In this document: positions 1 to 10,260 of the stretch, in pieces | Position numbering within the stretch: position 1 is the first letter of the stretch | Layout of the letters: each line of letters starts with the position of its first letter | IMG/VR virus record: IMGVR_UViG_2737471864_000005 | Reading direction: 5' to 3' (one strand) | Length of the DNA stretch: 10,260 nt | Origin: a virus | Lineage: Duplodnaviria > Heunggongvirae > Uroviricota > Caudoviricetes | Notes under the pieces: generated by a model | The model's database searches: none | Seen by the model: only the letters and a program-made list of their open reading frames with translations | What the model was told of the DNA's origin: nothing | Position numbers and translations under genes: made by a program

Positions 1-30
1 TAAGTTGGAGTCATTACCCTCAAAATTTAA

Positions 31-71
31 AAATAAATAAAAAAAGGCGAAGCGTGAATACACGCCACGCC
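31..71 (-). terminator. Putative intrinsic terminator after the capsid gene
   Basis: Hairpin 46-71 (GGCG/CGCC and GCGTG/CACGC stems, AATA loop) followed on the minus strand by a T-run (complement of A-rich 31-45), 18 nt after the capsid stop. Confidence 0.55.
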
Positions 72-89
72 TCTATTACACGTTAAATA

Positions 90-1118
90 TTATTTAACAG
101 TGATTTGAACGGAGAAGCCAACGCCGTGGTTTACAACCATCTGGCTATTCTCTGTAACAACGTTAACAGCATCCCCGCGAGCAGACTCGTAACTGTAGCT
201 ATACACCTCAGCAGGAGCGGCATTAATCAGTTCAAAGGTGCTGGAAGCAGCCCCGTAGATGTTCTGATATACGTTAGAGCCTTTAGCAAACTTCGGAACA
301 GCTACAGCGTCTGCGGTCATATGTGCAAGGTGTAGCGGATCAGTCACTTTGATCAGGTCAATGTTAGTTCCTGGAATGGTGAAAGTAGTTACACCTGGTA
401 GCAGGGAACGCACATTAAACACCACGTTGGCATCGTCTACAGGGCTTGCATATTGGAAAGCATTGACCATACCAACACTGTAACGAATAGCGTTGAATGC
501 CGCAGGCTTACAGAATACTACGATACGCTCTACAGCAGCCGCCTGGCTTTGTGCTTTCTCCATAATATCCGTAGCAAGCTGGTCAAATTGCTTGAAAACG
601 GTCATTGTGTCAGTGGCGGAGGCGTTCACAGTGGCTTTCATAGGTGTCACATTAAACAGCTTGCCCCATTCGATAAGAACATCATCAGTTTTAGGCGTGT
701 AAGTTTTACCGCTAAACAGAGATGCAGCCAACACGCTCTCTTTTGTACGCTGATACGCTACGTGGTGTTTAGCGATATATTCCGCATAGATATCAGTGAG
801 TGTTTCCTGAAAATCAGTGCCAGGTTTACGTTTGCCTTGAACATCAGAAGGTCTAATCACATCTTCACGAAGAAAATACGGGATTTCAATCAGCCATTCT
901 TTACCTTGTTCTCGCTTAGTAACATTGTGTTCAGAACTAAAACGGCTTGTCTCTTTGTTAAAGAGAGATTCGTTGCTTTCGACAAGCTGTGAAACAGCTA
1001 CTTTGTGAGATGTAACCCCTACAGAATCCGTAAAATCAAGAGTAGAAAGCAGATAGTTTCTAGTGCTATGCGCAGAGAACAGAGGAGCTAAATCAACGTA
1101 ATCATTACCTAGAATCAT
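90..1118 (-). CDS. Major capsid protein, lambda gpE-like family
   Basis: 342-aa ORF, close to lambda gpE length. By-eye matches to remembered lambda gpE: FTDSVGVTSHKVAVSQL vs FRESYPFTTEKVYLSQI, SGKTYT vs KGKYTM, C-terminal GFSVQIT vs FVSVQLA. AAGGA SD 10 nt upstream of ATG; 18-nt gap to upstream gene. Confidence 0.8.
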   Translation of the reverse strand: MILGNDYVDLAPLFSAHSTRNYLLSTLDFTDSVGVTSHKVAVSQLVESNESLFNKETSRFSSEHNVTKREQGKEWLIEIPYFLREDVIRPSDVQGKRKPGTDFQETLTDIYAEYIAKHHVAYQRTKESVLAASLFSGKTYTPKTDDVLIEWGKLFNVTPMKATVNASATDTMTVFKQFDQLATDIMEKAQSQAAAVERIVVFCKPAAFNAIRYSVGMVNAFQYASPVDDANVVFNVRSLLPGVTTFTIPGTNIDLIKVTDPLHLAHMTADAVAVPKFAKGSNVYQNIYGAASSTFELINAAPAEVYSYSYESARGDAVNVVTENSQMVVNHGVGFSVQITVK

Positions 1119-1136
1119 TTATTATTATTCCTTTTA

Positions 1137-1499
1137 TTAAGAAGTGAAAACAGAATGGAACCCTTCAAGCTGGAAGCCTTTTTTAATTAATGCTGTTTTT
1201 GCTGCTTCACTTACAGCATTCAGCGCATCAGCTTTGATGCAGACAAGGCCAGCATTGCTACGTAGCACATCTACAGGCTTGTTTTCTCCAGCCGTTACAA
1301 ATTCACTCATAACAACATAGATATCATCTCCTGATTCATATTTAGCGCCAGTGCTGGTGATCAAGTCGCCGCACTCAACATCAGCAGGAAGAGAAGCAAA
1401 AACCTTGCTTTCTACAGAGGCAAACGGATCAGTACAATAAGCCACCAGATCTGTAAAAGTCTTTCGACTTGGAAATAGAGCGTCTAAATCAATAATCAT
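1137..1499 (-). CDS. Putative head decoration protein (gpD-like by size and position)
   Basis: 120-aa ORF immediately upstream of the gpE-like gene, as D precedes E in lambda; strong AAGGAG SD. Sequence similarity to lambda gpD is weak by eye, so the function rests mainly on synteny and size. Confidence 0.5.
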   Translation of the reverse strand: MIIDLDALFPSRKTFTDLVAYCTDPFASVESKVFASLPADVECGDLITSTGAKYESGDDIYVVMSEFVTAGENKPVDVLRSNAGLVCIKADALNAVSEAAKTALIKKGFQLEGFHSVFTS

Positions 1500-1708
1500 T
1501 TAGTAATCTCCTTAGCTTTTAATTTGATTAATTCATTAAGGGAAGGTGTAGACGGAGAAGAAGGAGAAAAATATTTTTCAACACATCTTTCTACTTCCTC
1601 TACAGAACACCCAGCGTATTTAGCTACCATTTCGGTAATTTGTGGATTGATCTTTAGCATTTCATCGCGATACTTGATGATTTGCTCTTTATCATTTAAG
1701 AACAACAT
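1496..1708 (-). CDS. Hypothetical 70-aa protein, first gene of the capsid operon
   Basis: ORF whose TGA stop overlaps the ATG of the downstream gene (ATGA overlap at 1496-1499), suggesting translational coupling. No recognisable motif. Confidence 0.45.
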   Translation of the reverse strand: MLFLNDKEQIIKYRDEMLKINPQITEMVAKYAGCSVEEVERCVEKYFSPSSPSTPSLNELIKLKAKEITK

Positions 1709-1830
1709 TTATATAAACCTTGTTACCTTGTTTAAAGTAAGAAATACAACTTTTAAGTTGCATAACGGGCAAAATAAAAGGCAGCATTTAAAGCCGCCTT
1801 TTATTAACTTGTACCTATGTAATTACCCTA

Positions 1831-1862
1831 TGTTATGCATACTCCAAGATGTATGCATAACA
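1831..1862. promoter_or_regulatory. Perfect 12-bp inverted repeat, candidate operator upstream of the capsid operon
   Basis: TGTTATGCATAC (1831-1842), 8-nt spacer, GTATGCATAACA (1851-1862), exact reverse complements, about 130 bp upstream of the operon start codon at 1708. Confidence 0.5.
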
Positions 1863-1882
1863 AAGGAAAAAAGAGGTATAAT
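1854..1882 (+). promoter_or_regulatory. Possible plus-strand sigma70-like promoter overlapping the palindrome
   Basis: Exact TATAAT at 1877-1882 with a weak -35-like TGCATA about 17 bp upstream; would drive a short transcript toward the weak hairpin plus T-tract at 2041-2062. Confidence 0.25.
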
Positions 1883-2060
1883 GACACAGTATTTACTTAA
1901 GGAGGAGGAGAAGCGGGGAGCGGAGATTTTACTCCCCTTTAACGACAAGAAGAATTTTTAATATCGAACCAATAAAGGAAAAATAATCACCCCTATATAA
2001 TTATATTAACATACAATATATGAAATGCCAAGATATTTTACAACTTTTTTGTTGCTTTTT

Positions 2061-2399
2061 TTATTCTTCTGTGATAGCAGCGCCTAAGCGTTGTGCGAGT
2101 TCGATAAGGCCATCTCCCACATAGCGAACATCAGATTCAATATCTTCTATCCAGTTTGATAGCTCCCATATCTGATCCGCTGTTAGATATGCGTTCTCAC
2201 GCTTACAGAGCATCTCTACACGCTTAGAGAGGTGCTCAAAGGCATTCACAGCTAAATCCCAGTGTTTAAACGCCTCATTGAGTGCCGCTGGCGTGTTTTC
2301 TCTGTATGCTTCAAGTTCAGCGCGGTTTAAAGGCAGGAGGTAATCATCCTCATAATAATTAATTAGTGAGTAAATTGTGTCATACGTGTTTTTGTTCAT
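2061..2399 (-). CDS. Hypothetical acidic protein (112 aa from preferred start)
   Basis: ORF track gives 2061..2426; I prefer the ATG at 2399, which has a GGAG SD 9 nt upstream and sits just after the upstream gene stop (2401-2403). No recognisable domain. Confidence 0.5.
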   Translation of the reverse strand: MNKNTYDTIYSLINYYEDDYLLPLNRAELEAYRENTPAALNEAFKHWDLAVNAFEHLSKRVEMLCKRENAYLTADQIWELSNWIEDIESDVRYVGDGLIELAQRLGAAITEE

Positions 2400-2400
2400 A

Positions 2401-2811
2401 TTAAAAGTCTCCATAGTGATCAGCATTCTCTAAAATCTGGAAGTCTGGGACTAAGTTATTTAGGCCATTGGTGGCGAGATAACCGACGTAGTGGTTATAG
2501 TCTTCAAATCCTAAAATCTGGTATTTGCGCAAATCAGAGCTATCAACGATATACTCTTTTCTTTTTCTAGGTTTCCAGAATACGCCAGGTGTTGAAGATA
2601 AGATTTCTTGTAATGCGTTAAATTCATCTCCGCAAGGCACAGAGGGAGAATGTTCTATGATCTCTGTTTTCCATTCGCCAGGGGCGCTATTTTGCTTGGA
2701 GAGCGTAACTAGCTCTTTAAAGTCTTTACGTCTTAGAATAGATTTAGGTTTACTTAGAAGAGAAGCTGAATCACCGATTTTCTTAACAACGTTGTTTTTT
2801 CTTTTTGCCAT
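2401..2811 (-). CDS. Hypothetical protein with basic N-terminus (136 aa)
   Basis: ORF with AAGGA SD upstream; lysine/arginine-rich N-terminus (MAKRKNNVVKK). No recognisable domain. Confidence 0.55.
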   Translation of the reverse strand: MAKRKNNVVKKIGDSASLLSKPKSILRRKDFKELVTLSKQNSAPGEWKTEIIEHSPSVPCGDEFNALQEILSSTPGVFWKPRKRKEYIVDSSDLRKYQILGFEDYNHYVGYLATNGLNNLVPDFQILENADHYGDF

Positions 2812-2902
2812 TATTTACTTTTCCTTTTCTTTTAAAGGAAAACACCCCGAAGTATGTTTCTACGAGCATAAAAAACAACAACCACCACATAGCTATTACC
2901 AT
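2783..2902 (-). CDS. Candidate small hydrophobic peptide (39 aa), low confidence
   Basis: Hand translation of the 132-bp gap between the 92-aa and 136-aa genes: MVIAMWWLLFFMLVETYFGVFSFKRKGKVNNGKKKKQRC, hydrophobic N-terminus with basic tail, AAGGA 10 nt upstream. Overlaps the start of the 136-aa gene out of frame; could be a chance ORF in AT-rich DNA. Confidence 0.2.
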   Translation of the reverse strand: MVIAMWWLLFFMLVETYFGVFSFKRKGKVNNGKKKKQRC

Positions 2903-2943
2903 AATAATGTTTTCCTTTTATATTTTAATTACATAGAGAGATT

Positions 2944-3222
2944 TTAGAGAGTGGAATAGATGAAGTCTATTTCTCTGTCTAGTCTTTTGAGATTGAATGT
3001 AGAGAAAGATAATTCTTTAATCTCAATAACACCGAAGTTTGATAGCTGTTTCAGCCAGAATTTTAAACCATCTTCAGAGCACCCTGCTCGGTGTAACACA
3101 TCGCTATATTTTAGCGGTGTTGGCTTTCCTTTATAGAGGTAAGCAAGTGTTTCGTAGATGCGTTTTCCTGTGTCATTACACTGAATTCTGTCTACTTGAT
3201 TTTTTACTAAATATTGAATCAT
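2944..3222 (-). CDS. Hypothetical small protein, possibly DNA-binding (92 aa)
   Basis: ORF with strong AAGGAGG SD; 11-nt gap after the upstream gene. Possible helix-turn-helix-like segment, not verifiable by eye. Confidence 0.5.
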   Translation of the reverse strand: MIQYLVKNQVDRIQCNDTGKRIYETLAYLYKGKPTPLKYSDVLHRAGCSEDGLKFWLKQLSNFGVIEIKELSFSTFNLKRLDREIDFIYSTL

Positions 3223-3233
3223 AACCCTCCTTA

Positions 3234-3905
3234 TTAAAATGGAATATCAAAGTCTTCATATACTTTGGGATGTTTCTTAGCAAAATATGCCTCAATACCA
3301 TTTGGTAGCTTTAACCTGTGCTTATAGGCTAACGATGTTGCAAATTCTATAAATGATGCTCCTCCTGTTCTTTTGTGTTTCTCCTGGATGATAAGAGAGG
3401 AAAAATTCTCTAACACATCCTCCTCATTATCATTAGCTACCTTTTCACTTGATGAAACAGGTGTTTCTTCCGTCTCCCAGGGTAAAGGCGTATCCCAATC
3501 ATCATCAAGAACATCAAAAGAAGGCTGTTTATTATCTTCCGTAGGGGGAAGCTGATCAGGAACAGTTTTAACAGTAGCTTCTTGTTGTGTCTGGGCTTCT
3601 TGTTCATAAGGAAGGACAATATAAGCATTTGTGCTACCTGCCCTTTCCTCAATCTTCAACCATCCAAAAGAAACAAGATCTTTGATATGACGGCGTACCG
3701 TCTGATCTGTACCTACTCCTAACCGCTCACCAATACCTTTCAAAGATGGTGTTACCTTTTGGTATGTGCCAGATAAACTTAACAAATAAGAATAAATGAT
3801 CTTATGGTGTAGTTTTACTTCTTTTGTTTTGCCGTTAATCACCAGGGAAGTGATTGCTAGTAAGTCATAATCTATTCCTAAAAAAGGTTTTGTATGTTTA
3901 ATCAT
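3234..3905 (-). CDS. Winged-HTH DNA-binding protein with acidic linker; possible replication initiator or replisome organiser
   Basis: 223-aa ORF with AAGGAG SD. N-terminal region (KIIYSYLLSLSGTYQKVTPSLKGIGERLGVGTDQTVRRHIKDLVSFGWLKIEE) resembles wHTH domains of phage O / DnaD-type initiators; central acidic tract (DDDWDTPLPWETEE). Function is an architectural inference. Confidence 0.55.
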   Translation of the reverse strand: MIKHTKPFLGIDYDLLAITSLVINGKTKEVKLHHKIIYSYLLSLSGTYQKVTPSLKGIGERLGVGTDQTVRRHIKDLVSFGWLKIEERAGSTNAYIVLPYEQEAQTQQEATVKTVPDQLPPTEDNKQPSFDVLDDDWDTPLPWETEETPVSSSEKVANDNEEDVLENFSSLIIQEKHKRTGGASFIEFATSLAYKHRLKLPNGIEAYFAKKHPKVYEDFDIPF

Positions 3906-3959
3906 TAAAAAAGCTCCTTGATGTAATCACGCTCTACGGCGCTACTATGGTGATAAAAA

Positions 3960-4130
3960 TCACTTGCTTTTATTTGAGAGTGTTTCAGCCTCTCTTTTCA
4001 ACATATCAAGAATGTAATCTGTGACAGTGATACGTCTACTTCTGGCTTCTTTAAATAACACCTGAAATACTTCATCAGGAATATGAAAGCAAGTGCGTGG
4101 TTGTCTTTTCTTTTCTGTAGTTTCGCTCAT
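3960..4130 (-). CDS. Ribbon-helix-helix (CopG/Arc-type) DNA-binding protein (56 aa from preferred start)
   Basis: ORF track gives 3960..4175; the in-frame ATG at 4130 has a strong AAGGAG SD 6 nt upstream and avoids overlap with the upstream gene. PRTCFHIPDEVFQVLFKEARSRRITVTDYILDMLKRE fits a beta-strand plus two-helix RHH pattern. Confidence 0.55.
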   Translation of the reverse strand: MSETTEKKRQPRTCFHIPDEVFQVLFKEARSRRITVTDYILDMLKREAETLSNKSK

Positions 4131-4149
4131 AGTTTTCTCCTTCTTTTCT

Positions 4150-4338
4150 TTACTCTGTTTCAGATTCTTTTTCATTTTTTCTTAGTTCATCAATAATCTT
4201 GAGTGCTTCATTGAAGCAAGCTGCTCGCTCTGGATAACCTCGACTCCTTGCCATATTACGATTCATTACTACTTGATGGCGAGATAACTCACCTTTTTTA
4301 AATGCCGAGACGACGTGTTCCGGTGTAAACCATTTCAT
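4150..4338 (-). CDS. Hypothetical 62-aa protein, first gene of the regulatory operon
   Basis: ORF with AAGGAG SD 6 nt upstream, directly downstream of the predicted promoter and leader hairpin. Confidence 0.5.
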   Translation of the reverse strand: MKWFTPEHVVSAFKKGELSRHQVVMNRNMARSRGYPERAACFNEALKIIDELRKNEKESETE

Positions 4339-4355
4339 AAAAAACTCCTTATTCA

Positions 4356-4394
4356 GTTAAAAGAAAAAACACCTTGCAAGCCTGACGGCTTCAA
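4356..4394 (-). terminator. Leader hairpin plus U-tract, possible attenuator
   Basis: Stem AAGCC/GGCTT with TGAC loop (4378-4391), extended by TTG/CAA with a 1-nt bulge; on the minus strand followed by GGTGTTTTTTCTTTT. Lies between the predicted promoter and the first RBS. Confidence 0.4.
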
Positions 4395-4444
4395 AGTGCA
4401 TTGATTTTGATTATTTAGAGAAGAATGTTTTCTGTCCCTCTAAT

Positions 4445-4477
4445 ACCTATTATTACATATAAAGAAACATTTGTCAA
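4445..4477 (-). promoter_or_regulatory. Putative sigma70 promoter for the 4338-to-2061 operon
   Basis: Minus strand reads TTGACA (plus 4472-4477), 17-nt spacer, AATAAT; about 100 nt upstream of the first start codon. Confidence 0.4.
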
Positions 4478-5009
4478 TACCTTTTCACAAAAAATCTGAT
4501 CTTTTTCATGCACTTACATTTTTTCTTAGCTATTCGTGCTCTTCTGTGTAGTGCTATTCTTCATTATCCGCTAAAACGCTCTAAAACGCGTTCTAACGAG
4601 ATTTTGATAAAAGCAATACATTCCCTTATGTAATGGCTGTTTAGCTCGCCAGAGGCTTATTTAAGGGGCTTATTTTGTATTTGTTAGGTATATGAAAAGG
4701 TGATTGTAGATATAAGATAGAGAGTCACTTTATAAAACGCTCTGTAAAGCCCTGTAGTGAGTTTATATATGTAGACAATGCGTTTCCATTCCCTACCCTG
4801 CTTAATGCTGTTAGAGAAGCATTTAGACCCCTTATTTTTAATTAATTAAAGTATCCTCTATACACTCCTGTTATGAAACACCTCTGAATCCTTCATAAAA
4901 CACATTATGACGCAAAGAACACTTTTCTAAGGTGATTCCCTTCCTGAATGCTGTTTCTTGCGTCAGAGAGCTACAGAGAGCTTATAAAGCTATTATTAAT
5001 AATAAAGTA

Positions 5010-5062
5010 GATAAGTAAGATAAGTAAGTAAGATAACTAAGATAGATAAGATTAATAAGATC
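5010..5062. repeat. Tandem degenerate 9-mer array (GATAAGTAA-like, 5 units)
   Basis: GATAAGTAA, GATAAGTAA, (GTAA), GATAACTAA, GATAGATAA, GATTAATAA, GATC read directly from the sequence. Confidence 0.6.
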
Positions 5063-5105
5063 AGAATTCTCTTTCGGTGTCGCCTCTGGCTTTTCCACCG
5101 AAAAC

Positions 5106-5260
5106 AATTACACGACTACAGAATGTAGAAGTGGAATTGTATTGAGGCTTAGTGAAATTACACGAGGAAAGCAGAGTGTAATTGAGCTTTAGCCACTCTC
5201 TCTTCGAGTAATTACACAACTACAGAGAATAACAGAGTTATTAAGTGTAGGAGGGTAATT
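5106..5260. repeat. Cluster of AATTACAC motifs with nested short inverted repeats
   Basis: AATTACAC at about 5106, 5157 and 5210; AATTACAC-N12-GTGTAATT inverted pair (5157-5183); CTACA-N-TGTAG dyads at 5115-5127 and 5219-5250; AATAAC-AGA-GTTATT at 5228-5242. Confidence 0.55.
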
Positions 5261-5323
5261 AAGAGGTAGAGAGATAGAGTTAACACGTAAGCAATCTGTA
5301 GATTGGTTAGGTGATTACTCTTA

Positions 5324-5495
5324 CTGCGCACAGCGCAATAGTATTTCTTCGTGGGCGTTATCGCCAACGAAGTTACACGAAGAAAGTAACGCTTTGCTTT
5401 CGGTGTGAGCGGAACGGGCCAGCCAACGTAGCCCGAAAGGTAGCGGAGTAAGGCTGCTTGCCAGAGAGTGAAGCTAACGCCGGAAGGCAAAAAGA
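5324..5495. other. GC-rich island of consecutive stem-loops (candidate structured RNA or DNA site)
   Basis: TGCGC-ACA-GCGCA (5325-5337); CTTCGT-G-GGCG-TTAT-CGCC-A-ACGAAG (5347-5372); GTTAC-N9-GTAAC (5372-5390); CGGGC-N11-GCCCG (about 5414-5434). Markedly more GC-rich than its flanks. The only ORF here (5212..5499 minus) is low-complexity and likely spurious. Confidence 0.35.
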
Positions 5496-5498
5496 TCA

Positions 5499-5675
5499 TA
5501 TATATATAGATATAAAGAATATTATTTAATTATTATTTAATTATTCTTATTAACTTATTCTTATCGGGTATCAGTTTTGATAGGGGTAGGGGTATCAGAC
5601 TTGATAGGGGTAGTCATATCAAAGTTAATAGGGGTATCAATATTGATAGGGGTAACAGAATTCTGTGGGGGTAGC
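5499..5675. promoter_or_regulatory. Candidate replication origin: AT-rich unwinding tract plus five palindromic iterons
   Basis: Near-pure AT tract 5499-5562, then TGATAGGGGTA-type units starting at about 5578, 5602, 5626, 5644 and 5664 (spacing 24, 24, 18, 20 bp). Units form TGATA-GGGG-TATCA dyads, consistent with a dimeric binding protein. Confidence 0.5.
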
Positions 5676-5716
5676 TCACAGTGACCTACCGTTACTACCA
5701 ATCATCACATAGCACT

Positions 5717-6200
5717 CTGTGTAATGTCTTTCTATGTGCGTGCCATAATCCCCCTATATTCCCTGTGTAAATCATAGAATAATGCTCTCTATTCCCTGTG
5801 TAATTCCATACTAAAAAATCCAATGAAAAGTAGCTTAAAAGTGCAATTCTTACTTTCTTCACTTTTACATCACTTTCGCAAATCCTTGTGTAGTGCGGCT
5901 TACAGAGCACCATCAGAAATTGTTGGCTAAAAATTGTTCTGCTTGTTTCTTAATGAGTTTTCTTGTTTGTGCAAATTTTAAAATTTATTTTGTTTTTATA
6001 GCCTTATTTCGTGTAATGCGTGGCATAGCAAGCCCTTTTCTTGTGTTGTCAAGACATTTGGCAACGTTCAAACATCTGTTTAGAAATGCCAAATTGTTGA
6101 TCTAACAAATAAACCTGTATAAACAGAACACCATTTAATCTATCCCCCTGTGTATCCATTAGGCATACCAAATGAATACATCTAAATCGTGTAATATTCC
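5717..6200. repeat. Dispersed GTGTAAT / CTGTGTAA motifs (reverse orientation of the 5106-5260 cluster)
   Basis: CTGTGTAAT-like motifs at about 5717, 5765, 5800, 5885, 6010, 6148 and 6188, including ATTCCCTGTGTAA twice (5758-5812). Confidence 0.5.
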
Positions 6201-6285
6201 GTACCTATAAGGCTTGAAACAGACCAAATGAATACGATATACTCATTTGCATTGAAGTAGTGCCAAATCGATACATTAAGAGGAT
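6160..6285. promoter_or_regulatory. Candidate res site (three resolvase-binding subsites) upstream of the recombinase
   Basis: ACCAAATGAATAC at 6167-6180 and 6223-6235; the latter pairs with ATACTCATTTG (6239-6249) as an imperfect dyad; third related copy CCAAATCGATAC at 6263-6274. Ends just before the recombinase start. Confidence 0.4.
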
Positions 6286-6288
6286 TTT

Positions 6289-6828
6289 ATGAGCAATATC
6301 GGTTATAAGCGTGTGAGCACTGTAGATCAGAACACTGATCGCCAGCTTGCAGGAGTAACGCTTGATAAAGTCTTTGAAGATAAGCTGTCAGGTAAAGACA
6401 CTAACCGTCCAGGATTGCAGGCGTGTTTATCCTATCTGAGAGAAGGCGACACCTTACACGTCCACTCTCTTGATCGTTTAGGGCGTAACACCTTAGACAT
6501 TCTGGAGTTAATCAAACAATTGAATGATCGAGGTGTAATTGTTCGCTTTCACAAAGAAGGAATCATTGCTGACATTACAAGCGCGATGGGAAAGATGATG
6601 CTTACGATGTTGTCGGCAGTTGCAACGTGTGAACGTGAACTGATGTTAGAGCGTAAACGAGAAGCGCAAGCCGTCAATCCTACAAAGCGTGGTAAAGGGA
6701 AGGCAGTAGATAGGGAAGGTATAAAGAAAGCCCTTTCCGCTGGAGTGTCAGTGCGTAAAACCGCCGAGAGCTTTAATGTTGCTCCTTCAACGGTGCAACG
6801 TATCAAGAAGGAAGAAGAGGAGGCGTAA
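6289..6828 (+). CDS. Small serine recombinase, resolvase/invertase family
   Basis: 179 aa. N-terminal GYKRVSTVDQ with catalytic-serine context, DRLGRN, GKMMLTMLSAVATCERELMLER helix, and C-terminal HTH-like tail resembling gamma-delta/Tn3 resolvase. GAGGA SD 4 nt upstream. Confidence 0.85.
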   Translation: MSNIGYKRVSTVDQNTDRQLAGVTLDKVFEDKLSGKDTNRPGLQACLSYLREGDTLHVHSLDRLGRNTLDILELIKQLNDRGVIVRFHKEGIIADITSAMGKMMLTMLSAVATCERELMLERKREAQAVNPTKRGKGKAVDREGIKKALSAGVSVRKTAESFNVAPSTVQRIKKEEEEA

Positions 6829-6836
6829 TGCCTCCT
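6818..6836 (+). terminator. Hairpin overlapping the recombinase stop codon
   Basis: AGGAGGC-GTAAT-GCCTCCT perfect 7-bp stem (6818-6836); downstream T-tract is weak, so terminator function is uncertain. A second hairpin TCTGGA-TTT-TCCAGA lies at 6851-6865. Confidence 0.3.
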
Positions 6837-7155
6837 TGATATTTGGGGATTCTGGATTTTCCAGATCGGGGGGCGCTGATCTTCGCGTTAAACATTGATC
6901 ACGTTTGCGCCGATTTCAGATAAAAAGGCAGCTATTAAGCAATACGTAACTTTTACAATTAGTGAAATTATCTAAAACACAAGTTATATAGATGAGAAAA
7001 TGAAATATTATCTTGAACAAATCAAACAAAACAACACATCATCTTGTTGACACCATGCAAAGTGAATAGTAAGCTATTATATGTGAAAATTTGCACATTG
7101 CATGCAATAAAAAATAAATGATACCTTGTTGTTGTTAAATCAATAGGGGGTATCT

Positions 7156-7314
7156 ATGCGCTTTATCTTATCCATTTTAAAAACCTGCAGAACCACAATT
7201 ACTTTAGCTGTAATTGTTACCATCATATACCTCATCTATTTTACCCCTCGAGATAAAATCGATTCACTAGCGATCATCGTTCATGCAATGGCTACATTAA
7301 CTAAAAAACTTTAA
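7156..7314 (+). CDS. Candidate small membrane peptide (52 aa)
   Basis: Hand translation: MRFILSILKTCRTTITLAVIVTIIYLIYFTPRDKIDSLAIIVHAMATLTKKL. AGGGGG SD 5 nt upstream of ATG. One predicted transmembrane helix. Not in the ORF track, presumably because it is under the length cutoff. Confidence 0.4.
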   Translation: MRFILSILKTCRTTITLAVIVTIIYLIYFTPRDKIDSLAIIVHAMATLTKKL

Positions 7315-7327
7315 TAATTTCACTATC

Positions 7328-7371
7328 AGGCGCACAAACACATCTTTGATTGCTGGATGTGTTATGCGCCT
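7328..7371. other. Long imperfect inverted repeat between two convergent small genes
   Basis: AGGCGCACAAACACATC (7328-7344), 11-nt loop, GATGTGTTATGCGCCT (7356-7371). No clear U-tract on either strand, so it may be a binding site or RNA structure rather than a canonical terminator. Confidence 0.4.
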
Positions 7372-7380
7372 ACTGGTGAT

Positions 7381-7533
7381 TCAATCCTTAAGCCATTTCA
7401 ACTCACTAAGGAGTTTTCTTTCTTCGTTCTCTCGCTGTTTACGCTCTAGCCAGGCTTTTCCCTCTGGCGTAGACAGGAACTTACGAGCGTGAATCTTGCG
7501 GTTATTACGTTTTATAGCTGCAATGTTTTTCAT
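7381..7533 (-). CDS. Candidate small basic protein (50 aa)
   Basis: Hand translation: MKNIAAIKRNNRKIHARKFLSTPEGKAWLERKQRENEERKLLSELKWLKD. AGAGG SD about 7 nt upstream. Highly basic, likely helical. Confidence 0.4.
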   Translation of the reverse strand: MKNIAAIKRNNRKIHARKFLSTPEGKAWLERKQRENEERKLLSELKWLKD

Positions 7534-8355
7534 CGTGTTGCCTCTGTATTCATATGAAAATTAACAAGTTACATACTACACAGGGAGACTACGCATAAAA
7601 CACAATACAAGTAAAGATACATTTTCAAGACAATAGGAGCCATAAAGCGCCTTTGATGGTTATACCAAAAAATAAGCGCCGTAGGCGTATCCACTAAAAG
7701 GGCTTTTTCACAAAAGCTATGAAGTCTTAGCAGTTCTTCTCTTATCAGGCACCCGTTGTACTCCGGTGGACGAAACCGTGCTAGAGCTTGATTCTTTCCC
7801 GATCAAGTTAGGTTTTGAAGAGGTGGGCTTTAATCCACTATTGCACTTAAAACTCTTCCCATCATTTAGCCTGTTTATCCTCTGCAACGTCTCACGACGT
7901 GTGGCATCATTGGACACCGCGCCAGGTGTGGAACATCTTGCTAAGAGTTTTGGTAGAAGGTTTAGAGACGGTGGCACGTCTTCCAGCTTCAAAGGAACTT
8001 GTTACGAGGTTGAGCCTGGGAACTACTCGCCCATACGTGTTACACTACCAAAGCCCATAACAACGTATAGGCGTTTGTAAGTGATAACAGAAGATACAAT
8101 TTCTTAGAGAAGTTAAGCTAAGTTATTGATTTTCTTAATGGTGCGATAATAGGAACAATACACATAGGCGATAAGCTTTGTTTTTGTTGCCTTTTTTATT
8201 GTTCATTTTTTATAGATACCCCCAAAAGTACCCCCATATCTTTTTCCGCCCCTGAAATTTGGTTGTTATTCATACAGCATATCAGGCGGTAACGCTCTCC
8301 CTTTAACCCACTTATTGTATGATAGTGCTATCCCACAATAAGGAATCAGCCAGCC

Positions 8356-8715
8356 ATGAGAATGACCAGTCGCAAAAAAGAGATACTTAGCTACTTTGAA
8401 CCGGATAACCTCGAATGGGTGACTGGTGAGATTGGTGCGCCGCCGTTCGATGTGTCGGGTGTGGCCTACCTGCTTCATGGCATGGTGTCGTTCGATAAGC
8501 GTCACCAGCTCGAATCAACCCGGCACACACTGGAAAGCATGGTTGCTGGTGGACTGCTTGAGCGGGTGACAGTGTATGAATCGCGCCAGATACGGCGCGG
8601 CGGTGATACTAACGCAACGGTCGTGCGCTACGGTTTACCCGGTCAGTGCGCTGTTATGCGCGATACTGGCGGCGCTGACAACGCAATATCAGGTGAATAC
8701 ATGCGGGTCAGTTAA
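8356..8715 (+). CDS. Hypothetical protein (119 aa), enterobacterial-type composition
   Basis: ORF with GC-rich codon usage unlike the AT-rich region to its left; weak AGGA SD. Its 3-prime end overlaps the convergent gene by 8 nt. No family recognised. Confidence 0.5.
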   Translation: MRMTSRKKEILSYFEPDNLEWVTGEIGAPPFDVSGVAYLLHGMVSFDKRHQLESTRHTLESMVAGGLLERVTVYESRQIRRGGDTNATVVRYGLPGQCAVMRDTGGADNAISGEYMRVS

Positions 8716-9250
8716 TAGCCTGCAATCTGTCGTTGATGCGGCTCAGGTCGTAAACCCGGCGTTCAATATCCAGCATCAGGAAATTGTGGATCTCGGCCTG
8801 CTCAGGATTATCAGACTCTCTGGCCTGTAATAGCAATTCATTGTAACCATGCAAGCCGCCTGAGTTTTCCGCCGGGGTGGTGCCTTTCCCACGCAGGCAG
8901 CTAATGGGCTGATTACTCGTATCGTGTGTTTGCTTCTCCAGCACAATGACGCAATCCCACCAGTCGCCAAAGTCATACGTGTAAACCAGCTTGTCACCCT
9001 CATTCTGGAGCGCCGCCCATAGTGGCGTGATTGCCGCGTTACCCATGCTTTCATCCTCACCCCATACGCGATACTCGCTACCTGGATCACCTTTACGCCC
9101 TTTCTCGAACATATACAGGTGTTCGTCATTCCAGCCAAAAGCTAACTGGATCACGGCATGAAGTTTACTAAAGGGGATTTGCTCTGGAACCAGCACACGC
9201 CGCCATATAGGTGGTTTGCTGTCTCGGATGGTTATCTTTAGCTGGTACAT
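8708..9250 (-). CDS. pRiA4b ORF-3-like family protein
   Basis: 180 aa. N-terminal MYQLKITIRDSKPPIWRRVLVP and FGW...YDFGDWW motifs match my memory of the plasmid pRiA4b ORF-3 domain family; assignment is by recall only. Confidence 0.65.
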   Translation of the reverse strand: MYQLKITIRDSKPPIWRRVLVPEQIPFSKLHAVIQLAFGWNDEHLYMFEKGRKGDPGSEYRVWGEDESMGNAAITPLWAALQNEGDKLVYTYDFGDWWDCVIVLEKQTHDTSNQPISCLRGKGTTPAENSGGLHGYNELLLQARESDNPEQAEIHNFLMLDIERRVYDLSRINDRLQAIN

Positions 9251-9370
9251 GCAAATCCTGAATAAATGCGAATCGGAAGGATAACGATACTGACGTACTC
9301 ACAATTCTGTAAAGGTGAATAAAGGAAATTTGCTTAATACGCATAAGTTACATGTGGAATAATCCCATAT

Positions 9371-9556
9371 CTACCTGCGCGGCGCTGGCTTCTTCCACTG
9401 GTAGGCAGGTGCTCGCATCATTTCGCGGAACCTGTCGCGCCGGGCTATATCGGCATTAACTGATCGTTCTATCTCCCGTTGATCTGCCTGTGTAAGCTGG
9501 TGGCCTCCGTGCTCAAGTTTGGCGATGGTCAATAAGGCTATTTCGCGTGGTATCAT
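9371..9556 (-). CDS. Hypothetical small protein (61 aa)
   Basis: ORF with GAGGG SD about 8 nt upstream; charged helical protein, no family recognised. Confidence 0.4.
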   Translation of the reverse strand: MIPREIALLTIAKLEHGGHQLTQADQREIERSVNADIARRDRFREMMRAPAYQWKKPAPRR

Positions 9557-9740
9557 ACGTCATACCCTCTGGAAGGATGAAACACGCCCGGATTAAATTT
9601 CATTTTTCGCGGGTATAAAAAAACGATGGGGCGGGCAGTCCCGGATAGTCAGGGCTGTAGAGATTTGACTACCCCCTCCCCACTGGATTCAGGTTACTGC
9701 TATTCCGTTAAGCGCTGCTTACGGGGATAGCTGCGTTGTG

Positions 9741-9766
9741 ATTTTGACCATTCAGGTCGCCGCTAT
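9741..9766 (-). other. Lambda cosN-like decamer within a repeat-containing non-coding gap
   Basis: Plus 9754-9763 AGGTCGCCGC is the reverse complement of GCGGCGACCT, matching 10 of 12 nt of the lambda cohesive-end sequence GGGCGGCGACCT. Nearby direct repeats of ATTCAGGT and GATTT(T)GAC. Could be chance. Confidence 0.2.
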
Positions 9767-9853
9767 TTCCTCACCGATTGGGTGCTACGCGCGCGCGTAC
9801 TTGTCCCGAAATACCAGAAACCGCCAGCCAGAGGATGATTTCCCTCTGGTGGT

Positions 9854-10135
9854 CTACCTTTGCCTCTTGCCGCCATTTAACCGGAAGGCGTTACCGTTCG
9901 GTTGCGCTATCCCCATGCGGTGTTGCGTTTCGGTAACAGCTTTATGCAGGTCGCCAAATTCCTCAACCTTCACGGGCGGGCGCTTCACGTTCTCCAGACA
10001 CGTTTCACGGCGGCGCTTTATCCATTCCCGATCATCGTCCTCAGTGCATAACAGCATGACTTCCATCCATCGTGCGGCAGCTCTCCGGTATAGCCCTTTT
10101 GACTCCAGCTCTTCAGCTTTCCTGTCCCTTATCAT
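9854..10135 (-). CDS. PerC-family transcriptional regulator-like protein
   Basis: 93 aa. N-terminal pattern AEELESKGLYRRAAARWMEVM...REWIKRRRETCL matches the conserved PerC/Pch N-terminal motif as I recall it. GAGAGG SD 5 nt upstream. Confidence 0.65.
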   Translation of the reverse strand: MIRDRKAEELESKGLYRRAAARWMEVMLLCTEDDDREWIKRRRETCLENVKRPPVKVEEFGDLHKAVTETQHRMGIAQPNGNAFRLNGGKRQR

Positions 10136-10171
10136 TTCTGCCTCTCAGATTATATAGATAAGCAAAAAGGT

Positions 10172-10250
10172 GTTGGTTCAGTTGGTTCAGTTGGTTCAAT
10201 TTGTAAAGATCGTTGTTTTTATTGTGTTTTTTCTGAAATGTTGAACCAAC
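10172..10250. repeat. Three perfect tandem 9-mers GTTGGTTCA plus one inverted copy
   Basis: GTTGGTTCA at 10172-10180, 10181-10189 and 10190-10198; reverse complement TGAACCAAC at 10242-10250. Located upstream of the perC-like gene. Confidence 0.6.
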
Positions 10251-10260
10251 ATCAACTCAT

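Follow-up and report, generated by a model that had tools for sequence, protein, structure and literature searches.

A gene-free region with a putative iteron origin in an Escherichia coli island carries a large, conserved structured element, a candidate non-coding RNA

What a stretch of almost 2 kb contributes to a mobile element when it holds no recognizable gene is the question raised by a 10,260-nt sequence of a caudoviricete record (IMG/VR record IMGVR_UViG_2737471864_000005), referred to here as the window; all coordinates are those of the whole window. Between a gene on the minus strand (4150–4338) and a recombinase gene on the plus strand (6289–6828) lies an interval, positions 4339–6288 or 19% of the window, that we call the gap. 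A first-pass annotation, made from the sequence alone, had seen in these ~1.95 kb no credible open reading frame (ORF) and a dense, organized set of repeat and structure classes, and had read the interval as a control region for replication, partition or packaging, or as one or more non-coding RNAs. It named a conserved coding gene or pseudogene homology as findings that would speak to the contrary, and it proposed a search of Rfam. With moderate confidence, we interpret the gap as a cis-acting replicon control region of four adjoining units, belonging to a phage-satellite-like, Escherichia-restricted island integrated at thrW, and combining an iteron origin with a new structured RNA directed toward that origin.

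The gap is conserved at the DNA or RNA level, not as coding sequence. Its longest ORF encodes only 95 aa (5212–5499, minus strand). When the gap was compared by tblastx with eight divergent relatives, no frame-specific conservation was detected, all six frames being equal in every conserved block, and many 1-nt insertions or deletions separate 13 close copies. The non-coding assignment is based on these two observations. The gap is carried by 733 of 5426 complete E. coli genomes, with at least 80% of its length present in 335. Among the matches listed, RefSeq/PGAP places no gene under it in nearly all carriers, the exceptions being one IS1 insertion and one 'hypothetical protein'. The gap with ~80 bp of flanking sequence measures 1.9–2.5 kb in 23 distinct full-length copies. 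The first-pass view that no credible ORF is present was therefore borne out, and neither a conserved coding gene nor pseudogene homology was found. The dense organization is equally real, since the repeat and structure classes of the gap all exceed chance. Near and distant BLAST searches of phage and plasmid records with the gap gave no informative match. ToxI-like or CRISPR-like arrays were considered and rejected, as the repeat geometry is unfit and the partner genes are absent.

A replication-control region with an iteron-type, lambda-O-like, Rep-dependent origin is supported by a 91%-AT tract located beside iterons, by the co-variation of iterons and Rep, and by a phage nuclease-fusion that carries the Rep DNA-binding domain. 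Five dyad-symmetric repeats form the iteron array (Table 1), where an iteron-type theta origin is expected to have at least three direct repeats of 17–24 bp; the iteron pattern has 8 matches compared to 2.1 expected, a count reached in none of 200 shuffles. The adjacent tract is a putative DNA-unwinding element (the AT content of the whole window is 59%), and an AT-rich or GATC-rich tract is found at the same position in every element type. The iterons themselves differ between related loci, which are designated by L numbers. At the corresponding place, L003 and L004 have five copies of TAACAGnnTTCTGTGGGGGT, L030 has four copies of ACATACGGGTTTTTCCCGTATATCA, and other relatives have ACCTACC-type or GTGCCT-type repeats. 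The iteron type agrees with the type of the Rep N-terminus in 22 of 22 scorable loci (11 + 8 + 3); each of three iteron types goes with only one of three Rep N-terminal types, and no discordant strong match was observed. Rep, encoded in the leftward operon, is assigned as a replication initiator by matches to Pfam HTH_36 (E=1.1e-7) and to PHROG replication-initiation families (E down to 4e-12). The gap is free of DnaA boxes, even when 1 mismatch is allowed. The N-terminal winged-helix part of Rep would be expected to bind the five dyad iterons and to open the adjacent 91%-AT tract, an arrangement resembling a lambda-O-type, DnaA-box-free origin.

A tblastn search of phage records with Rep identified one phage, Escherichia phage muut (146 kb; Stephanstirmvirinae, Justusliebigvirus). 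Its protein gp154 (332 aa; MN850573.1 81258–82256, corresponding to L092 2501–3499) is identical to Rep at 122 of its first 123 residues, with DNA differences at 2 of 369 bases; the corresponding part of the window is 3537–4145. The Rep DNA-binding part is followed by a second HTH_36-like domain and by a C-terminal MUG113/T5orf172 domain, which belongs to the GIY-YIG superfamily; of the two matches there, PF13455 (E=1.8e-4) lies above and PF10544 (E=0.03) below the respective cut-off. The protein encoded upstream of gp154, muut_153, is identical to an Arc-like allele of the islands. The near-identical Rep domain and Arc-like allele are evidence of a very recent gene capture from satellite to phage. 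Neither the iterons nor any of the other gap motifs are present in phage muut.

Phage ICP1 encodes Odn (Gp88), a chimeric nuclease that uses a DNA-binding domain borrowed from the RepA of PLE, an element resembling a phage-inducible chromosomal island, and cuts the PLE iteron origin (PMC8263062). A satellite Rep DNA-binding domain is joined to a T5orf172-type domain in gp154, as the PLE RepA_N domain is in Odn. The two differ in the extent of mimicry (99.5% at the nucleotide level for gp154, compared to 42% amino-acid identity for Odn), in the second HTH_36 domain of gp154, and in the co-acquisition of the neighboring Arc-like gene by muut. By analogy, gp154 is a candidate Odn-like anti-satellite nuclease in a coliphage, the iterons may be important enough to be targeted by a phage, and the island seems to parasitize large, lytic phages of the phAPEC8 kind. 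The fusion is a separate finding of interest, as it would represent the same type of counter-measure as that of ICP1 against the Vibrio PLE.

On the left side of the AT-rich tract is a structured element (SE) of ~440 nt, whose secondary structure is conserved with compensatory changes and which matches no Rfam family. The plus strand of the 446-nt segment has a folding energy of −165.9 kcal/mol, compared to −114.5 ± 5.2 kcal/mol for dinucleotide shuffles (z = −9.8), and a scan with 150-nt windows limits the SE fold signal to about 5050–5400. Three hairpin modules of the form AATTACAC(G/A)ACTACAG (repeat family D2) occur in the gap. SE is found at 89–100% identity in 438 of the 5426 E. coli genomes (~8%). 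A 29-nt probe from its 3' domain retrieved 49 metagenome contigs (those labelled being from human gut) and 11 IMG/VR contigs. Six divergent SE types were obtained from these contigs together with two E. coli genomes (L030 and L031); they have a common order of modules and widely different sequences. The plus strand is more stable than its complement by 11–31 kcal/mol in 7 of 7 types.

Since hairpins are swapped between types, whole-element MAFFT/RNAalifold analysis was poor, and alignments were made for each module. Hairpins H3–H4, aligned for 13 sequences, have 96.8% of cells paired, compared to 32–47% when the 3' partners are slid; eight pairs changed on both sides versus 1–2 when slid, and the covariation score of 0.241 (compared to ≤0.076) was reached in none of 500 shuffles. 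Two compensatory pairs are present in H1, and H2 shows G·U to G-C and G·U to A-U series. G·U pairs are numerous; H2 contains three in 8 bp, and U-A, U-G, C-G series are seen at single pairs of SE helices. H6 covaries within the divergent group, and the long-range helix P5 changes from A-U in the window and L003 types to G-C in the L035 and L050 types. Close copies vary in the loops, or gain and lose whole hairpin tips; some are without 100–150 nt of 5' hairpins and still retain the closing helix P1, H4, P5 and the 3' domain. A covariance model of H3–H4 (model R1) gives one sense match per locus, scoring 88–123 bits in full-length copies; a match of 115 bits in sense scores 20 bits in antisense, and antisense scores are generally ~20 bits. 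At the place of SE, the sister type of L003 (6555–6935) and L004 (6380–6750) has a structured segment (z = −6.8 and −7.7, respectively) with a 26-bp long-range stem, which has only the P5 pairing in common with SE and does not contain the invariant 3' domain.

The Rfam search proposed in the first-pass annotation was performed with Rfam 15 (E≤1) and matched no family over the gap of the window, nor over SE in five divergent loci. ARAGORN found nothing, a literature search with a conserved 19-mer found no paper, and the element is not described in a paper on O157 prophages (PMC2669165). Both readings first proposed for the gap gain support from these analyses: that of a replication control region from the AT tract with its iterons, the Rep–iteron co-variation and the phage nuclease-fusion with the Rep DNA-binding domain, and that of non-coding RNA from the conserved, covarying structured element, which is best read as RNA. 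For a role in partition or packaging, the analyses gave evidence neither for nor against.

SE is most likely an RNA, which would be transcribed rightward, toward the AT-rich tract and the origin. An RNA reading from left to right is favored by the one-strand G·U pattern, by several GNRA loops (GAAA, GAGA and GUAA), and by the long-range helices. The order of SE, AT-rich tract and iterons is kept with at least five iteron/Rep types. The position and orientation of SE are also the same whether the downstream recombinase is a serine or a small tyrosine enzyme, and its placement is maintained even with a methyltransferase insertion in the right flank. Because its place and orientation are constant whatever the iteron, Rep or recombinase type, an RNA coupled to the origin is the most economical reading of SE, one that is argued from position. 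Such an RNA would serve in activation or priming of the origin, through transcriptional activation or in the form of an R-loop pre-primer, or else in copy-number control. We tentatively suggest that SE defines a new class of large (300–510 nt) multi-helix RNAs of E. coli phage satellites, which would be obligatory for replication or for exploitation of the helper phage and physically coupled to the origin. If so, this RNA part of a Rep/iteron replicon would be without a described counterpart.

Several observations weigh against the proposed control region and its RNA. A distance of ~1.7 kb between origin and rep is unusual among lambda-like replicons. No sigma-70 promoter was found upstream of SE in any type, and no terminator was found downstream. 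The outer arms of P1 show no cognate preference in a cross-type duplex matrix, leaving that part of the model unsupported, while the inner P1 and the 3' domain are invariant and hence provide no covariation evidence. The compensatory changes mostly split two lineages and thus represent few independent events. The L003/L004 type has a largely different structured segment that is missed by model R1, as is the L030 variant. Finally, a Rep-dependent element needs no ColE1-like RNA primer, so the role of SE is argued from its position only.

One motif occurs both within SE and to the right of the iterons, and bears on two of the alternatives. Right of the iterons, six YGTGTAR(T) copies have the same orientation (Table 1), and four inverted copies form hairpin arms inside SE (5108–5373, minus strand). 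YCGTGTAAT has 4 matches compared to 0.15 expected, and 9 of the 11 [CT]GTGTA[AG]T copies of the window fall inside the gap. In the L030 and L063 types, the motif has changed together at both places, to GTGCAAT right of the origin and to ATTGCAC in SE. L063 keeps the window-type iterons despite this change, indicating that the motif changes independently of the iteron type.

The main rival, which we regard as possible but rather unlikely, is that SE is a real RNA whose role lies apart from the origin, as a trans-acting or scaffold RNA in the conflict between satellite and helper that is merely adjacent to the origin. It could regulate helper or satellite genes, engage a phage or host protein as its decoy, or relieve the leader terminator described below. 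The invariant 3' domain is independent of the Rep, iteron and recombinase types, suggesting a partner outside the replicon module. Moreover, SE hairpin arms (AAUUACAC) are complementary to the same-strand YGTGTAAT copies right of the origin, and both change together in other types, a complementarity that recalls the P4 CI/seqA–seqC logic; in addition, the sequence that faces the 5' arm of the leader terminator recurs at 5833 as GCTTAAAAGTGCA (family D13). However, the complementary stretches are only 8–9 nt, extended complementarity was seen neither with phage muut nor with any phage record, and Rfam gave no match to C4/CI. SE is unlikely to be a CsrB-like sponge, a reading that was rejected since GGA is not enriched (6 in 446 nt of SE). 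A role apart from the origin would also leave unexplained the strict juxtaposition of SE and the AT tract in all types.

Two further alternatives, in which SE acts as DNA, are less likely given the strand-specific G·U pattern. In the first, which we consider improbable, the opened plus strand would fold as single-stranded DNA into a primosome-assembly or primase signal, similar to the single-strand initiation (ssi) signals or G4-type or phiX-type sites close to plasmid origins. SE directly adjoins the unwinding element, contains many short stable hairpins, some with GAA/ACA-type triloops, and folds better than shuffles on both strands. On the other hand, G·U pairs are tolerated and evolved through on one strand only, GNRA loops are present, and known ssi signals are 40–150 nt in length, not 300–500 nt with long-range helices. 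In the second, which appears very improbable, the hairpins are arrays of duplex palindromic sites for a YCGTGTAAT-binding protein (either a host factor or one of the island's Arc-like and 62-aa proteins) that would order the origin into a nucleoprotein complex without any folded nucleic acid. The motif, counted 13 times in the gap, is inverted inside SE and uniformly oriented beyond the iterons, and changes in SE and the right flank together in other types; in addition, AATTACAC-N12-GTGTAATT resembles an operator. Most of the covarying helices (outer H3, H4, H6 and P5) are nevertheless without the motif, hairpin tips are gained and lost as units, and a one-strand G·U bias would be meaningless for duplex sites. 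That the gap is decayed or unannotated coding sequence (pseudogenes or missed small genes) is scarcely credible, even though short genes can escape PGAP and divergent relatives have small genes right of the origin (a helix-turn-helix (HTH) protein in L031; a methyltransferase-like and an HTH protein in L050), because the tblastx matches are equal across six frames, frameshifting indels are common among close copies, the candidate 55-aa ORF of L030 is truncated in L050 and L031, and the window-type right flank has no homolog of the L031 and L050 small genes.

The features of the proposed replicon control region and its flanking genes are listed in Table 1.

Table 1. Features of the gap and of the genes on either side, in window coordinates.
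Feature	Position	Strand	Remarks
Rep, replication initiator, 223 aa	3234–3905	−	HTH_36 (lambda-O/DnaD-like by PHROGs); third gene of leftward operon
Arc-like (ribbon-helix-helix) small protein	3960–4175	−	Leftward operon; PHROG Arc-like repressor, weak match (E=0.0017)
Conserved 62-aa three-helix protein	4150–4338	−	First gene of leftward operon
Leader hairpin and U-run, terminator-like attenuator	4357–4399 (hairpin 4369–4399)	−	Between promoter and first ribosome-binding site
Sigma-70-type promoter of leftward operon	4449–4477	−	TTGACA-17-AATAAT with TG; 11/12 match
Three imperfect ~150–160-bp motif copies	4560–4975	+	AAAACGCTCT...CATTCCCTACCCT...; upstream of SE
TAAG-rich tract	4985–5056		82% AT; window-type element only
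SE, ~440-nt structured element, candidate non-coding RNA	5057–5500	+	Closing helix P1, 5070–5090 / 5460–5487
SE hairpins H1–H4	5104–5321	+	Part of SE model
SE long-range helix P5	5325–5335 / 5401–5412	+	Part of SE model
SE invariant 3' domain	5413–5465	+	Part of SE model
Putative DNA-unwinding element	5497–5562		91% AT; starts at GATC; directly left of iterons
Five dyad-symmetric ~20-bp iterons	5563–5672	+	Four TATCAnnnnnTGATAGGGGTA, one TAACAGAATTCTGTGGGGGT; spacing 24/24/18/18
Six same-orientation YGTGTAR(T) motifs	5712–6197 (5719, 5765, 5798, 5888, 6011, 6189)	+	Right of iterons
Putative res-like recombinase binding region	6164–6275		CAAATGARTA at 6169 (+), 6225 (+) and 6240 (−); related GCCAAATCGATAC at 6261
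Promoter-like site of recombinase gene	6214–6243	+	TTGAAA-18-TATACT; 10/12 match; inside res-like region
Small serine recombinase (resolvase/invertase family), 179 aa	6289–6828	+	Pfam Resolvase (PF00239), E=1e-33, and HTH_7

The left part of the gap contains the promoter and leader of the Rep operon. In the L030 and L035 types, a leftward promoter of the same strength is found at the corresponding place. The leader (4336–4445, minus strand) folds into a 13-bp stem followed by UUUUUUCUUUU, and the L035 and L031 types have a different GC-rich hairpin with U7 in this position. On account of this hairpin and U-run, and of the different ones at the same place in other types, the Rep operon is probably controlled by termination/antitermination. 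The promoter and leader terminator would then gate expression of the 62-aa protein, the Arc-like protein and Rep. The sequence GCTTCAAAGTGCA (4388–4400), opposite the 5' arm of the leader terminator, is repeated 1.4 kb away as the 5833–5845 copy mentioned above, and a plus-strand RNA from this copy could pair with the terminator arm.

Between the promoter and SE, the imperfect motif copies are arranged in tandem (4572/4733 and 4796/4939; repeat families D3 and D11). This upstream motif is conserved in all types, with the consensus ...AAAACGCTCTGTAAMGC...CATTCCCTACCCTnTTTAAATCGCT... in an alignment of eight types, and is a candidate regulator or promoter site. Its interpretation as a helper-phage promoter was rejected, as it is absent from phage muut. 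The TAAG-rich repeats that follow (5003–5061) have periods of 4, 9 and 13 according to Tandem Repeats Finder.

At the right end of the gap, three exact copies of CAAATGARTA (two direct and one inverted) are located within 81 bp upstream of the recombinase ATG, along with one degenerate copy, and a minus-strand fold signal (z = −4.7) is present at 6100–6249. The recombinase also matches the PHROG DNA invertase family (E=6e-55). The arrangement fits a res-like site with autoregulation. In L003, whose recombinase is ~58% identical, other half-sites (GTGTAGTGAT / ATCACTACAC) are found at the res-like place. A small tyrosine recombinase (~186–205 aa) is present instead of the serine recombinase in L030 (4605–5165) and L063 (2537–3154). 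It looks like a functional replacement of the resolution enzyme, and a role in multimer resolution fits this replacement. The resolvase may bind a res-like site that overlaps its own promoter and resolve multimers of the excised replicating circle.

From 13 to 8154, the window matches at 100% identity a ~12.4-kb island in E. coli LZHX12, which is bounded by a tyrosine integrase and, at the thrW site beside proA, by the 3' end of tRNA-Thr. The genes of the island specify a tail protein (Dit-like), a protein of 610 aa, a capsid protein (Phage_cap_E) and a number of small proteins. The island is probably a phage parasite, or phage-satellite-like element, of E. coli. The capsid protein was rejected as a pointer to the helper, its only matches being at ~23% identity and mostly from Pseudomonas phages. 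The 62-aa protein was modelled by AlphaFold2 from its single sequence as three helices, with a pLDDT (predicted local distance difference test) of 89. A Rop-like RNA-binding role was considered and rejected, as there is no Pfam or PDB sequence match and no significant fold match for the model. Among 100,044 species genomes (one per species), the protein was detected at four loci only, of which two belong to Escherichia genomes and two lie on contigs labelled as Bacillota metagenome-assembled genomes; this narrow family limits the power of covariation analysis.

The replicon module, consisting of the Rep operon, the ~2-kb gene-free stretch and the recombinase, recurs in islands with other cargo and other integration sites, for example in a GmrSD island at a thiM riboswitch (L002) and in an island with a TIR-domain gene (L031). 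Cargo beside the module includes a GmrSD restriction enzyme (L002 10005–11576), a TIR-domain protein (L031 6592–7066) and a methyltransferase-like protein with an HTH (L050 9655–10374). The varied cargo suggests that this module family carries defence genes.

The island match stops at 8154, inside a repeat of the tRNA-Thr 3' end. The remainder of the window (8155–10260) is a second element with a higher GC content (50–57%), which encodes a PerC regulator along with a member of the pRiA4b ORF-3 family and is 91–94% identical to small Klebsiella and Raoultella plasmids. Its location past the tRNA-Thr repeat indicates islands in tandem at thrW. Other gene-poor stretches of the island are 1709–2060 (350 bp) and 6829–8154 (~1.3 kb), with only a 50-aa annotated ORF. 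At 33–158 (minus strand), Rfam gives a weak L20_leader match of 23.8 bits (E=0.4; gathering score 58.7). It lies over the capsid gene's 3' end, continues beyond the stop, and is essentially a terminator hairpin with a U-run. This match is probably due to chance.

E. coli is the best-annotated bacterium, yet SE appears in no annotation pipeline or RNA catalogue. If SE is an RNA on which the origin depends, Rep/iteron replication would gain an RNA component, and SE would offer a tractable E. coli model for satellite–phage arms races and for large structured RNAs.

Known systems resemble individual parts of the gap. As a candidate RNA, SE is comparable to ColE1 RNA II and to the transcriptional activation of ori-lambda, in that it would be a long, highly folded, G-rich RNA read toward the start of DNA synthesis (the GC skew on its RNA-like strand is +0.16 to +0.28). 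ColE1, however, is Rep-free and has the antisense RNA I, whereas the gap has Rep with cognate iterons and no RNAI match; SE has no sequence or Rfam similarity to RNA II, and a ColE1-type primer was rejected on these grounds. The satellite context, a replication operon under a (here predicted) leader terminator, and short same-strand complementary repeats in and around a folded RNA are all in common with the CI RNA of P4 and the C4 RNA of P1 and P7. SE differs from these in being six times larger than CI RNA and in the 8–9-nt length of its complementary repeats, compared to the targets of at least 15 nt required of a C4/CI immunity RNA; with no Rfam C4 match, this assignment was also rejected.

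The right end of the gap resembles the res sites of Tn3 and gamma-delta, where a small serine recombinase gene is preceded by ~110 bp with half-sites of ~10–12 bp, including one inverted half-site pair, that overlap the promoter of the recombinase gene. A Tn3-family res is expected to have three dyad subsites within ~120 bp upstream of the gene. The gap differs in that only three clear half-sites, and no clear layout of subsites I, II and III, were recognized, and in the small tyrosine recombinase found at the same position in relatives.

The putative origin is most similar to those of lambda (ori/O), of PICIs (phage-inducible chromosomal islands) and Staphylococcus aureus pathogenicity islands (SaPIs), and of the Vibrio PLE (RepA-ori). 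These have in common 4–5 dyad-symmetric repeats of ~20 bp beside an AT-rich tract, an initiator whose N-terminal winged-helix domain sets the iteron specificity, and the exchange of Rep-plus-iteron pairs as modules between elements; like the gap, lambda is without DnaA boxes. Unlike in these systems, the origin here is located ~1.7 kb upstream of rep across a divergent promoter region, rather than inside or directly after rep; the island Rep has no helicase or primase domain, and a P-like loader is not visible; and a 440-nt structured element is fused to the AT-rich side. A Rep/iteron origin with a res-like site and a regulated promoter is thus of a known general kind, while the new feature is a folded element, large, conserved and with covarying pairs, for which no RNA family has been described.

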